Of a stretch of 64,000 nt of DNA, positions 55,395 through 57,718 are shown piece by piece; position 1 is the stretch's first letter, and every line of letters starts with the position of its first letter. The notes below the pieces were generated by a model. That model worked only from the letters and a program-made list of their open reading frames with translations, searched no databases and was not told where the DNA came from. The DNA comes from Candidatus Oxydemutatoraceae bacterium (GTDB lineage Bacteria > Pseudomonadota > Gammaproteobacteria > Poriferisulfidales > Oxydemutatoraceae), in contig CBDCOZ010000003.1 of NCBI GenBank assembly GCA_965220085.1, positions 782,979 through 846,978 on the forward strand, written 5' to 3'. The translations under genes were made by a program, and so were the position numbers.

Positions 55395-55875
55395 CCGTTC
55401 GCTCAGCCGTCGGTTGCGGCAAAGCCGCATATCCGCCCGTCTTTGATCAGAACCGGCAGATCGTTGTCCAGCGTGTCAAATTGCTCCGCAAGTTGTTCCA
55501 GCGTTGCGCCTCCGGCGATAGGCGCGCCAAAAAGATAGAAGCCTTGCTTGAGAAACTCTTGGCCGAAGCCGCTTAACCGTTCGCTCAGCCGTCGGTTGCG
55601 GCAAAGCCGCATATCCGCCCGTCTTTGATCAGAACCGGCAGACCGTTGTCCAGCGTGTCAAATTGCTCCGCAAGTTGTTCCAGCGTTGCGCCTCCGGCGA
55701 TAGGCGCGCCAAAAAGATAGAAGCCTTGCTTGAGAAACTCTTGGCCGAAGCCGCTTAACCGTTCGCTCAGCCGTCGGTTGCGGTAAAACCGCATATCCGC
55801 CCGTCTTTGATCAGAACCGGCAGATCGTTGTCCAGCGTGTCAAATTGTTCCGCAAGTTGTTCCAGCGTTGCGCCC
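55331..55875. repeat. 182 bp tandem repeat x3 covering the convergent 3' ends (both stop codons) of the tlpA-like and DUF2063 genes
   Basis: copies begin at 55331, 55514 and 55696 with a few point differences; they create the chimeric ORFs 55403-55612 and 55585-55794. Confidence 0.85.
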
Positions 55876-56540
55876 TTGTCAATTGCTTGTAACAAGTCAA
55901 AGTGTGATGGATCGATGGGCTCTGCCGTCGGCTTGTTGTTGCGGCGACAGATGCAGAGATATTCGTTGGTCGGGCGAGCGCCGACTTCCGCCGCAGCGCT
56001 CTGCTCTTTGTTCGCCCGCCAAATCTCAAACAAAGGGTAAGCCGACGTCAACAACCGCAGCGCGGCGGGCAACAGAAATCGTATTTCTTTGTCGCTTTGT
56101 CGCGCGGTCGCCTGCGCAAACGCATCGAAGTCAAAGGGCGCATCATCAGCCGCGTAATACGCCGCGTGTAAGTGGGATTCCAGTCGCGCGAGATCGGGCA
56201 GGTAGGGAAAGTCCGCCAGCTCATCGCGGGTCGCAAGCAATTCGGCAAAGAAGCCGGGCAAGCGTTCGCCATAGCGGTTCAGGTCGCTGTGCTCGGACGG
56301 ATACCGCTCGATATATGCTTGCGCGACTTGCGCAAAATAGTCCTCGCCCAGGATCCGGCGGCATATCGGGTAAACCTGCCGCAGCGCGGCGGACAGAGAG
56401 AACCGCATGTTACCGAGATGAACCGCGATGCGCTTGTTTGCTGTCATGGCGCGGCTGTCGCAAATCGTTGCGAGCAGTTTTTGCTGGTCGTGTCCCAGCA
56501 ACGAGCCGACGAAGGCTTTTTGCAAATCGCGCAGTTTCAT
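55767..56540 (-). CDS. DUF2063 protein (BufC-like putative DNA-binding partner of DUF692)
   Basis: 257 aa; gene fusion/overlap with the upstream DUF692 gene; characteristic pairing. Confidence 0.7.
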   Translation of the reverse strand: MKLRDLQKAFVGSLLGHDQQKLLATICDSRAMTANKRIAVHLGNMRFSLSAALRQVYPICRRILGEDYFAQVAQAYIERYPSEHSDLNRYGERLPGFFAELLATRDELADFPYLPDLARLESHLHAAYYAADDAPFDFDAFAQATARQSDKEIRFLLPAALRLLTSAYPLFEIWRANKEQSAAAEVGARPTNEYLCICRRNNKPTAEPIDPSHFDLLQAIDKGATLEQLAEQFDTLDNDLPVLIKDGRICGFTATDG

Positions 56541-57433
56541 TGCGGCGAAGGGGCGCTGTCTAGGATGTGTCGCGCTTGTTCGGCCTGTTCAAGCAGCGTT
56601 TCAAGCGGCGGCAGGTCGTTGTCCCACTCTATCAATGTCGGTATCCGCGGGTTGTCACGAGCAAACTTGGCAAACAATTCCCAGACCGGTTCCGAAACCG
56701 GATGGTCGTGGGCGTCCAGCAGGAATTCTTTTCTGGTCTGATAGCCGCCCAAGTGCAACTGCTTGATGCGTTGCGCGGGAATATTGGCAATAAAATCTTC
56801 GGCGTTCTCGCCGTGGTTGGCCTGATTCACATACGCATTGTTCAGGTCAAGCAGGATAAAACAATCCGCCTCTTCGGCGACGGCGGCGACGAATTCCGCT
56901 TCGCTCATCGTCGAGTGACGGTAGCGCAGATACGCGGAGATATTCTCGATCAGAATCGGCCGCTCGAGGAAGTCTTGAATCTGCCGGATGCGCGTTGCGG
57001 TATGCCGCGCCGCTTCGTCGGTAAAAGGCAACGGCAGGAGGTCGTGCGATTGGATGCCGTCACAACCGGTGAAGCACAAATGGTCGGAAACCCATTCGGG
57101 GCGGTAGCGCTCGGCCAGTCGTTTGATGTGCGAGAGGTAGGCCGTATCCAGCGGGTCGGTCGACCCCACGGCCATCCCGACGCTGTGCAGTGCGATGGGG
57201 TAGTGTTCCCTGACGGCTTCCAGTTGATGGTGAACCGCTCCGCCGTCACAAAAATAGTTATCGGCGAGCGCTTCCAGCCAGTCGATCCGCGCTTCGCCAG
57301 AAGCGAGCGCGTCCGCAAACGGCGCGCGCAAGCCGATACCGACTCCGCCGATAGGGTTTGTGTTATACGAGGCAGGAACAGCAGGGCGCAAGTGTTTGCG
57401 TCCTGCTGTCACAGATTGGCTTTGGGTTGGCAA
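56537..57433 (-). CDS. DUF692 / MNIO (multinuclear non-heme iron oxidase, MbnB/BufB-like) protein
   Basis: TIM-barrel DUF692 (UPF0276) motifs; sits between the DUF2282 precursor and the DUF2063 gene. Confidence 0.75.
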   Translation of the reverse strand: MPTQSQSVTAGRKHLRPAVPASYNTNPIGGVGIGLRAPFADALASGEARIDWLEALADNYFCDGGAVHHQLEAVREHYPIALHSVGMAVGSTDPLDTAYLSHIKRLAERYRPEWVSDHLCFTGCDGIQSHDLLPLPFTDEAARHTATRIRQIQDFLERPILIENISAYLRYRHSTMSEAEFVAAVAEEADCFILLDLNNAYVNQANHGENAEDFIANIPAQRIKQLHLGGYQTRKEFLLDAHDHPVSEPVWELFAKFARDNPRIPTLIEWDNDLPPLETLLEQAEQARHILDSAPSPQ

Positions 57434-57718
57434 TTATTTTGCCGCTTTGGTGCCGACAACCATACCGCCTGTTATTTTCGTACACGTTCCTCCCGGCACG
57501 AAAATCCATTCGGTCTTCATGTTGTCCGCCGCCGCTTGACCGCCGCAGCCGTGTTTGCCGTCGGTAGAACCGCAATCATTCATGCCTTTTTTTGAGATAC
57601 CGGCGCACTTTTCCCATTCTTTGGGTTGCTCCGGCACCGCGGCGTGAGCCGAGGCAATCAATGCGCCTGTGGCTATGATACCGACGATGGTCGATTTGAT
57701 TAGAGTAGGTTTTTTCAT
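57434..57718 (-). CDS. DUF2282 bufferin-like RiPP precursor (signal peptide plus 4-Cys core)
   Basis: [26 protein letters not shown] signal peptide; EKCAG..NDCG..HGCGG..GTC. Confidence 0.7.

Follow-up and report, generated by a model that had tools for sequence, protein, structure and literature searches.

The operon buf1ABCD of Caulobacter vibrioides (CCNA_03363-03366) encodes a DUF2282 peptide with a Sec signal, followed by a multinuclear non-haem iron oxidase (MNIO) and then by a DUF2063 protein (PMC11626156). The core of Buf1 carries cysteines at positions 12, 23, 31 and 52; the second and the third of them (CysII and CysIII) are modified and a disulfide joins CysI to CysIV (PMC11626156). 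In Caulobacter, BufB and BufC are necessary and sufficient for the modification and the DoxX protein is dispensable (PMC11626156). The chemistry and genetics of this DUF2282 type were described in 2024 (PMC11626156); clusters with an MNIO plus a DUF2063 gene have been counted at >24,000 loci, in about half of the Pseudomonadota reference genomes (PMC13097082).

The captophorins HvfABC of Haemophilus influenzae and fontiphorin of Fontimonas likewise combine an MNIO with a DUF2063/PME1 protein and a Cys-rich precursor with a signal peptide (PMC13097082). Their precursors have a repeated EGKCG motif and many modified cysteines, whereas the precursor described below is a folded DUF2282 domain that has four cysteines and contains EKCAG only once. 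Methanobactin systems (MbnABC) use an enzyme of the same MNIO superfamily and also turn cysteine of a ribosomal peptide into a copper ligand; they differ in the partner protein (MbnC), in the chemistry (oxazolone-thioamide) and in the precursor, which is short, of leader-core type and lacks a Sec signal; export and uptake of methanobactin differ as well from the system considered here.

The whole stretch of DNA that we analysed (the window), 64 kb of a source contig of ~2.05 Mb, contains a locus that is very likely an intact minimal bufABC operon for production of a Buf1-type bufferin (captophorin), a ribosomal peptide metallophore. The locus consists of three co-directional minus-strand ORFs in 55767-57718 (Table 1). 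A sequence-only reading had seen in 55767-57718 a bufferin-type operon of DUF2282, DUF692 and DUF2063 genes, with the precursor gene at 57434-57718. All three ORFs were found there (57434-57718, 56537-57433 and 55767-56540), and profile searches assigned them to the three families with scores above the curated cut-offs: Pfam PF10048 (DUF2282/BufA1) for BufA (69.4 bits, E 2.5e-19, GA 22.4), PF05114 (MbnB_TglH_ChrH) for BufB (335.5 bits, E 2.6e-100) and PF09836 (DUF2063) for BufC (67.1 bits, E 1.7e-18, GA 27.2). Together with the NCBIfam models, these matches support the bufferin reading and narrow it to the Buf1 type.

Table 1. Positions in the window of the bufABC genes, of the parts of BufA and of the adjoining elements
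Feature	Position	Strand	Size	Description
bufA	57434..57718	-	94 aa	Buf1-type bufferin precursor
BufA signal peptide	57641-57718	-	residues 1-26	predicted Sec-type
BufA core	57437-57640	-	residues 27-94 (68 aa)	Cys at core 12, 23, 32, 53
bufB	56537..57412	-	likely 291 aa	MNIO (multinuclear non-haem iron oxidase, DUF692)
bufC	55767..56540	-	257 aa	DUF2063 partner protein (PME1 type)
kdkA-bufA divergent intergenic region	57719..57820		102 bp	presumed promoter region
Tandem array	55330..55875		182 bp x 3	junction of the 3' ends of the thioredoxin-like gene (+) and bufC (-)

An AGGAG is located 8 nt 5' of the bufA ATG. The earlier reading had the MNIO gene following bufA directly; the gene order holds, while its start, a TTG right after the bufA stop codon (57433; 298 aa, the longest ORF), is less likely than the GTG at 57412. 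The latter is probably the true start, as it aligns with the ATG of the gene in a sister species (L162; Logan ERR14375725), and it would leave a gap of 21 nt after bufA. A further candidate, TTG 57391 (284 aa), is the start called on a short-read contig of identical sequence. The bufB and bufC genes are coupled, with the bufC ATG overlapping the bufB stop codon (ATGA), and in each of the 64 related Buf1 loci whose flanks were long enough, bufC is located directly 3' of bufB.

The Sec signal peptide that had been proposed for BufA was borne out by inspection: a basic n-region (MKKPTLIK) is followed by a hydrophobic stretch of 14 residues and an AHA|A motif, with no lipobox cysteine. Cleavage is predicted after Ala26 (AHA|AVP), and in an alignment with 55 homologues conservation of the family starts at this predicted mature N-terminus. 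The four Cys motifs named in the earlier reading are present in BufA, and they are invariant across the homologues: W35-E-K-C38-A-G, N47-(D)-C49-G, C58 and G77-(T)-C79. There are 21 invariant columns in the alignment (the four cysteines and 17 others), and BufA keeps all of them. It departs from the family in having CGG rather than CAG after CysIII, Phe at the nearly invariant Tyr73 and Ala at Pro92. The core is equal in length to that of Caulobacter Buf1 (68 aa), with cysteines at 12/23/32/53 versus 12/23/31/52; unmodified and reduced, it has a calculated monoisotopic mass of 6966.32 Da.

No solved structure was found for the BufA precursor, either by sequence or by fold. AlphaFold2 models the core at a block-mean pLDDT of 81-91, with strands at residues 34-39, 70-75 and 86-92 and a short helix at 78-83, while most of residues 1-25, in the signal peptide, have pLDDT <50. 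In this model Cys38 is part of the first strand and Cys79 part of the short helix, which matches the position of the published bufferin disulfide.

For peptide chemistry and copper binding we infer from the characterised Buf1 system of C. vibrioides the following sequence of events. BufA would be made as a 94-aa precursor, probably held by the C-terminal winged-helix domain of BufC. In the cytoplasm, BufB with BufC would oxidise Cys49 and Cys58 (core Cys23 and Cys32) to 5-thiooxazoles, with a mass change of -4 Da each. The peptide would then be exported by Sec and cut by signal peptidase at the predicted site, and in the periplasm Cys38 and Cys79 (core 12 and 53) would form a disulfide. The folded 68-aa product may bind copper via thiooxazole nitrogen and sulphur and thus buffer excess metal. 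The mass shift of -4 Da per Cys pair expected in the sequence-only reading has to be corrected: in bufferins each modified Cys accounts for -4 Da, and the disulfide for a further -2 Da (PMC11626156).

A bufferin-like peptide may also serve in a role other than copper buffering, such as handling of another metal or response to oxidative or sulphur stress. The setting of the operon could be taken in this sense: no copper-resistance or copper-sensing genes adjoin it, and it lies between LPS-core genes and a gene for a TlpA-like thioredoxin, a setting that differs from that of Caulobacter buf1; moreover, published discussion allows for metals other than copper (PMC12452194). Still, Buf1, Buf2, the products of H. 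influenzae and N. gonorrhoeae and fontiphorin are all linked to copper (PMC11626156, PMC13097082), and the residues around the modified cysteines are nearly invariant. We consider a role other than copper buffering improbable.

Unlike buf1ABCD of Caulobacter, the operon has neither bufD (DoxX) nor nearby regulators of the SigF/NrsF type. That no DoxX-type gene is adjacent had been stated before, and the statement extends to the whole 64 kb: tblastn searches of the window with DoxX, ECF-sigma and downstream-partner proteins of related loci as queries gave no match. Given that Caulobacter can do without DoxX, and that among the 64 related Buf1 loci it was detected in 18 and not in the other 46, its absence does not exclude membership in the Buf1 type. 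No regulator, such as an ECF sigma/anti-sigma pair, adjoins bufABC. Alignment of the kdkA-bufA intergenic region with that of the sister species shows the conserved blocks GTATTATACA and GCATATA. No site passed in a scan of 55200-59600 for the sigma-70 consensus, and a search of the whole window against Rfam gave no match.

The TlpA-like gene adjoins the buf genes in the window and in the sister species, and another locus (L163) has the co-directional order bufABC-cutA-dsbD-TlpA-like. We considered TlpA-like thioredoxin as a general partner of bufferins and rejected this idea: such genes are near buf in only ~4 of 160 loci, so there is no general association. That the thioredoxin of this locus, which is membrane-anchored and encoded convergently to bufC, acts as a periplasmic redox partner replacing DoxX is speculative and unlikely.

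BufB keeps all 41 positions conserved at >=95% in 163 homologues. The retained metal-site set includes H69, H104, E149, D182, N185, H213, D226, H228 and E255 (numbering of the 284-aa form), and counterparts of the HvfB site-3 residues N175, D242 and H244 are present as well, as judged via the alignment with 3BWW. No relative recovered from the genome and metagenome contig collections exceeded 51% identity to BufB, so that transfer of the Caulobacter chemistry rests on conservation at the level of the family. Its nearest relatives in the two contig collections come from gammaproteobacterial MAGs.

BufC is of full length in comparison with 52 homologues. A sequence search of the PDB gave no match for it; matches were found by fold only. 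Its AlphaFold2 model (pLDDT 92.5) ends in a beta-beta-alpha-alpha-alpha-beta domain of winged-helix, RRE-like type. Foldseek matched the model to the MNIO partners TglI (8hci_A, 5e-7) and NGO1945 (3dee, 5.5e-5) and weakly to the RRE of TbiB1.

Could the cluster belong to another class of MNIO peptides, namely to the EGKCG-repeat class of HvfABC and oxazolin-fontiphorin, or to methanobactins with oxazolone-thioamide groups rather than thiooxazoles? BufB does match the NCBIfam models of HvfB, ApyH, MbnB and ChrH, and the closest solved structure, 3BWW (E 1.4e-54), is a Histophilus enzyme 72% identical to HvfB (2026 HvfB preprint). All these matches are below the cut-offs, though (HvfB 254.6 with cut-off 360, MbnB 57.1 bits with cut-off 325), as is that of BufC to HvfC (28.6 with cut-off 142). 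The only model matched above its cut-off is the BufB equivalog NF050167 MNIO_BufB (336 bits, cut-off 310). Since this threshold alone was reached and BufA consists of one DUF2282 domain with four cysteines, with no array of EGKCG repeats and unlike a methanobactin precursor, we assign the cluster specifically to the Buf1 type. MbnA- and MbnC-like genes are absent, and the Hvf product has itself been recently reassigned to 5-thiooxazoles (PMC13097082). Membership in another class is thus very improbable.

The same synteny was observed in the sister species: waaA, kdkA, bufABC, the thioredoxin-like gene, amiC and tsaE, without a segment of ~4 kb present at 50811-54824 of the window. Identity between the two species is 91% for BufA, 82% for BufB and 65% for BufC. 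The dN/dS values are 0.079 for bufA, 0.089 for bufB and 0.133 for bufC, in the same range as for the housekeeping gene kdkA (0.135), and indicate that bufABC is under purifying selection.

The 3' end of bufC had been noted to lie inside a 182-bp tandem repeat. From the coordinates of the array it follows that the last 35 codons of bufC and its stop codon are in the third copy; the gene is intact. A second array (156 bp x 5.9) is located between kdkA and waaA, so the two arrays bracket the bufABC-kdkA block. In the sister species both junctions are single copy, and the convergent gene ends overlap by 4 and 15 nt. Judged by this comparison, the arrays are lineage-specific amplifications of convergent gene junctions; the 182-bp array does not belong to the machinery for bufferin production. 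It is extremely improbable that bufABC is silent or in decay, perhaps through disturbance by the expanded repeat at the 3' end of the operon. Although the end of bufC is inside a recently expanded array and the scans gave no consensus promoter or terminator, the three frames are intact with all conserved residues kept, dN/dS is low, the synteny is conserved and, despite the tandem duplication, bufC is complete in the copy continuing from the gene body.

One could speculate that the arrays are not a product of neutral slippage and were selected as spacers separating convergent genes with ancestrally overlapping 3' ends; we regard this as unlikely. If true, the spacers would reduce collisions during transcription, or antisense read-through into the neighbouring gene, e.g. 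under strong induction of the bufferin operon. We rejected the idea that the repeats form structured RNA or act as terminators (fold z = -0.33 for the 182-bp unit and +0.50 for the other); no terminator-like sites between gene ends were found in either array, nor in the two extra copies of the 182-bp array. A literature search on arrays at convergent gene junctions gave nothing relevant.

As a routine member of a well-known family, the bufABC operon of the window matters little beyond annotation. It adds to this family a minimal bufABC operon that is intact and subject to purifying selection, from a lineage for which neither of the contig collections searched contained a close relative, and its BufA provides a natural sequence variant for studies of substrate scope. 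The locus supports the view that precursor, MNIO and partner protein make up the functional core of the system, without DoxX or a dedicated sigma factor.

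Profile searches assigned the three head-to-tail, minus-strand ORFs that fill 55767-57718 to the families named in the sequence-only reading: a DUF2282 precursor (bufA), an MNIO (DUF692) enzyme (bufB) and its DUF2063 partner (bufC). We observed 69.4 bits (E 2.5e-19, cut-off 22.4) for bufA against Pfam DUF2282/BufA1, 335.5 bits (E 2.6e-100, cut-off 25) for bufB against Pfam MbnB_TglH_ChrH and 67.1 bits (E 1.7e-18, cut-off 27.2) for bufC against Pfam DUF2063. Among NCBIfam enzyme models for bufB, the cut-off was passed only by the MNIO_BufB equivalog (336 bits, cut-off 310), and not by HvfB (254.6 bits, cut-off 360), ApyH (99.9 bits, cut-off 400), MbnB (57.1 bits, cut-off 325) or ChrH (53.3 bits, cut-off 600); bufC scored 28.6 bits against HvfC (cut-off 142). 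Failure of the three profile assignments, named in the sequence-only reading as what would refute it, did not occur. Bufferins were defined and characterised in 2024, Buf1 being of DUF2282 type and Buf2 of 6/12-Cys type (PMC11626156). Judged by its sequence, the cluster belongs specifically to the Buf1 type of bufferin cluster; we tested all sequence-level features that define this type and found them, in support of the proposed bufferin operon, and the sole missing feature, a DoxX gene, is optional.

Features of the buf locus and other parts of the window (window coordinates)
Feature	Position	Strand	Description
bufA ORF	57434-57718	-	94 aa
bufB longest ORF	56537-57433	-	298 aa
bufC ORF	55767-56540	-	257 aa
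Thioredoxin-like gene	54819-55394	+	AhpC-TSA/Redoxin match; ResA/TlpA-like
182-bp x 3 tandem array	55330-55875		bufC/thioredoxin-like junction
156-bp x 5.9 tandem array	58505-59434		kdkA/waaA junction; 312-bp higher-order alternation
Segment missing from sister species	50811-54824		~4 kb
First large ORF of segment	51346-53094
Overlapping ORF, other frame	52535-53056
Second large ORF of segment	53099-54457
Convergent ORF pair	20193-21107 / 21091-22944		3' overlap 17 nt (longest-ORF coordinates)
Convergent ORF pair	32802-34082 / 34079-34867		3' overlap 4 nt (longest-ORF coordinates)
Tandem array	3464-3560		49 bp x 2
Tandem array	14549-14767		41 bp x 5.1
Tandem array	19718-19951		56 bp x 4.2
Run of 27 C	15325-15351		~70 nt 5' of ORF starting 15419

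A search of 5.8 billion proteins gave 443 BufA relatives at E <= 1e-5, with PF10048 in 120 of 120 among the matches listed. The alignment of 55 relatives has 21 invariant columns, all retained in BufA of the window; they include the four cysteines with their contexts (W35-E-K-C38-A-G, N47-x-C49-G, C58 and G77-x-C79), as expected for the four-Cys DUF2282 core claimed for this ORF. Near-invariant residues are replaced at two positions only (Tyr73 to Phe, Pro92 to Ala), and one majority residue is changed (Ala59 to Gly). By inspection, the N-terminus looks like the Sec signal peptide that had been claimed: an n-region with basic residues, then a hydrophobic core of 14 residues and the cleavage motif AHA|AVP, while a lipobox cysteine is absent. 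The part conserved across the family starts at the predicted mature N-terminus.

The predicted core has 68 aa with Cys at 12, 23, 32 and 53. In the core of Caulobacter vibrioides Buf1, the characterised bufferin, the Cys positions are 12, 23, 31 and 52; CysII and CysIII of that peptide are converted to 5-thiooxazoles (-4.03 Da each), and a disulfide joins CysI to CysIV (PMC11626156). In the AlphaFold2 model of BufA (pLDDT < 50 in the signal peptide, block means of 81-91 in the core) Cys38 belongs to beta strand 1 (residues 34-39) and Cys79 to a short helix (78-83), which would match the disulfide position given for the Caulobacter bufferin (PMC11626156). Neither sequence search nor fold search found a solved structure resembling BufA. 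Peptide chemistry, copper binding and regulation of bufABC are predicted here by homology.

Among solved structures, 3BWW, a DUF692 protein from Histophilus, comes nearest to BufB (E 1.4e-54); TglH and MbnB come next. Compared with 162 homologues drawn from the fetched loci, BufB retains all 41 positions conserved at >= 95%, among them (284-aa numbering) H69 (ALHSVG), H104 (SDHLCF), E149 (IENIS), D182 and N185 (LDLNN), H213 (LHLGG), D226 and H228 (LDAHDH) and E255 (IEWD). Mapped by way of 3BWW, three of these residues, N185, D226 and H228, are the counterparts of HvfB N175, D242 and H244, each essential to HvfB activity (bioRxiv 10.64898/2026.07.17.739211). BufC can be aligned over its full length with 52 homologues, and its confident model (pLDDT 92.5, pTM 0.87) consists of a helical domain at the N-terminus and a winged helix (beta-beta-alpha-alpha-alpha-beta) at the C-terminus. 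Foldseek matched the model to TglI (8hci_A, E 5e-7), partner of the MNIO TglH, and to NGO1945, a DUF2063 protein of Neisseria (3dee, E 5.5e-5); a weak match was to the RRE protein TbiB1. BufC is a partner of the PME1 type that PMC13097082 describes.

The bufA ATG is preceded by AGGAG at 8 nt, and the bufC ATG overlaps the bufB stop (ATGA). The bufB start is ambiguous. It could be the TTG directly 3' of the bufA stop (298 aa), an in-frame GTG at 57412 (291 aa), which lines up exactly with the sister-species ATG, or the TTG at 57391 (284 aa), where the gene was called to start on a short-read contig of identical sequence. We consider GTG 57412 the most likely of the three.

The sister-species locus (L162, a Logan contig from ERR14375725) was reached via a 91%-identical BufA; it has ~75% DNA identity to the window and shares its gene order. 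Against it dN/dS was 0.079 for bufA, 0.089 for bufB and 0.133 for bufC (0.135 for the housekeeping neighbour kdkA), values that indicate purifying selection on bufABC, and we rejected a remnant. No BufB relative above 51% identity appeared in scans of GTDB species representatives and JGI metagenomes; the only near relatives came from Logan assemblies of two sibling runs, ERR14375724 and ERR14375725. A BufC sequence identical to that of the window is recorded on a 2.05-Mb NCBI/ENA contig.

The absence of an adjacent DoxX-type gene, already pointed out, extends to the whole 64 kb, where no DoxX, ECF sigma factor or downstream partner of the latter was detectable. We compared 64 related Buf1-type loci with at least 2.5 kb of sequence 3' of bufB (gene identities Pfam-confirmed on representatives): bufC was present in 64, DoxX in 18, an ECF sigma factor in 25, and 23 had neither DoxX nor sigma factor. 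Given these counts, and since in Caulobacter DoxX is dispensable for modification and copper protection and BufB with BufC suffices in vitro (PMC11626156), the layout without DoxX is a common one. Past bufC, 3' of the ECF sigma factor, a ~200-aa protein with no Pfam match at E <= 1e-3 is encoded in L002 (12137-12742) and, by the equivalent gene, in ~23 related Buf1 loci; its position suggests that it is probably an anti-sigma factor of NrsF-like type missed by the Pfam model.

The window is ordinary chromosome (57% GC), with infB, aroA, rpsA, lapB, dxs, nadE, rluD-like, clpB, yjeF, tsaE, waaA and kdkA genes and those for an amiC-like amidase and a tolC-like outer-membrane protein, all by Pfam. 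The neighbours of bufABC are not kept beside buf in distant relatives. The thioredoxin-like product carries a membrane anchor at its N-terminus and a CWNC motif, and its gene is convergent to bufC in both window and sister species. In another locus (L163, 5868-8697; BufA 66% identical) cutA, dsbD and a TlpA-like gene come after bufABC in the same direction. A general TlpA-buf link was rejected, as only ~4 of 160 other loci have TlpA-like genes near buf.

The 3' end of bufC does lie inside the 182-bp repeat, as had been noticed: the unit holds its last 35 codons and stop, an 8-nt spacer and, in reverse complement, the final ~21 codons of the thioredoxin-like gene. bufC runs unbroken into the copy next to its body, and the copy at the far side of the array holds the end of the thioredoxin-like gene, the rest being pseudo-3' ends. 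Since the repeat-encoded residues ~223-257 align with homologues and complete the winged helix (last two helices and last strand), BufC is intact. The 156-bp array, 2.6 kb away, likewise amplifies a convergent junction. In the sister species both junctions are single copy, with gene ends overlapping by 4 nt (bufC/thioredoxin) and 15 nt (kdkA/waaA). L001, a short-read contig from an independent assembly (ERR14375724), matches 55818-58608 at 100% identity and ends inside both arrays; de Bruijn assemblers break contigs in this way at real repeats.

The simplest reading is that the arrays are small tandem duplications kept where they are cost-free, because duplication of a unit that covers the meeting point of two convergent 3' ends damages neither gene. 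That they are adaptive spacers seems very improbable. No unusual RNA structure was predicted in the units (z = -0.33 for 182 bp, +0.50 for 156 bp), and no terminator-like site was found between the gene ends. Two other convergent pairs of the window have overlapping 3' ends, the same compact layout that we infer to be ancestral to both arrays. Three further tandem arrays lie between co-directional ORFs, and the genome seems rich in short ones. The length of homopolymer tracts such as the run of 27 C can vary by slippage.

In the sister species amiC directly precedes the thioredoxin-like gene; by this comparison the ~4-kb segment would be a lineage-specific insertion near bufABC. Its two large ORFs start with sequence resembling a signal peptide, contain internal repeats (...FTPGxxHVGxxIRVCAxFxD...) and lack any Pfam match. 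The first ends in ~190 residues rich in Q/R/P/H, and the overlapping ORF resembles an ordinary protein, which suggests a possible frameshift.

Bufferins were surveyed in 2025 (PMC12452194) and in 2026 unified with Hvf/fontiphorin peptides as thiooxazole metallophores; MNIO-PME1 loci number > 24,000 and occur in roughly one of two Pseudomonadota reference genomes (PMC13097082). The cluster described here is a further example of this already known class; what is unexpected is only the two junction arrays and the lineage-specific insertion nearby.
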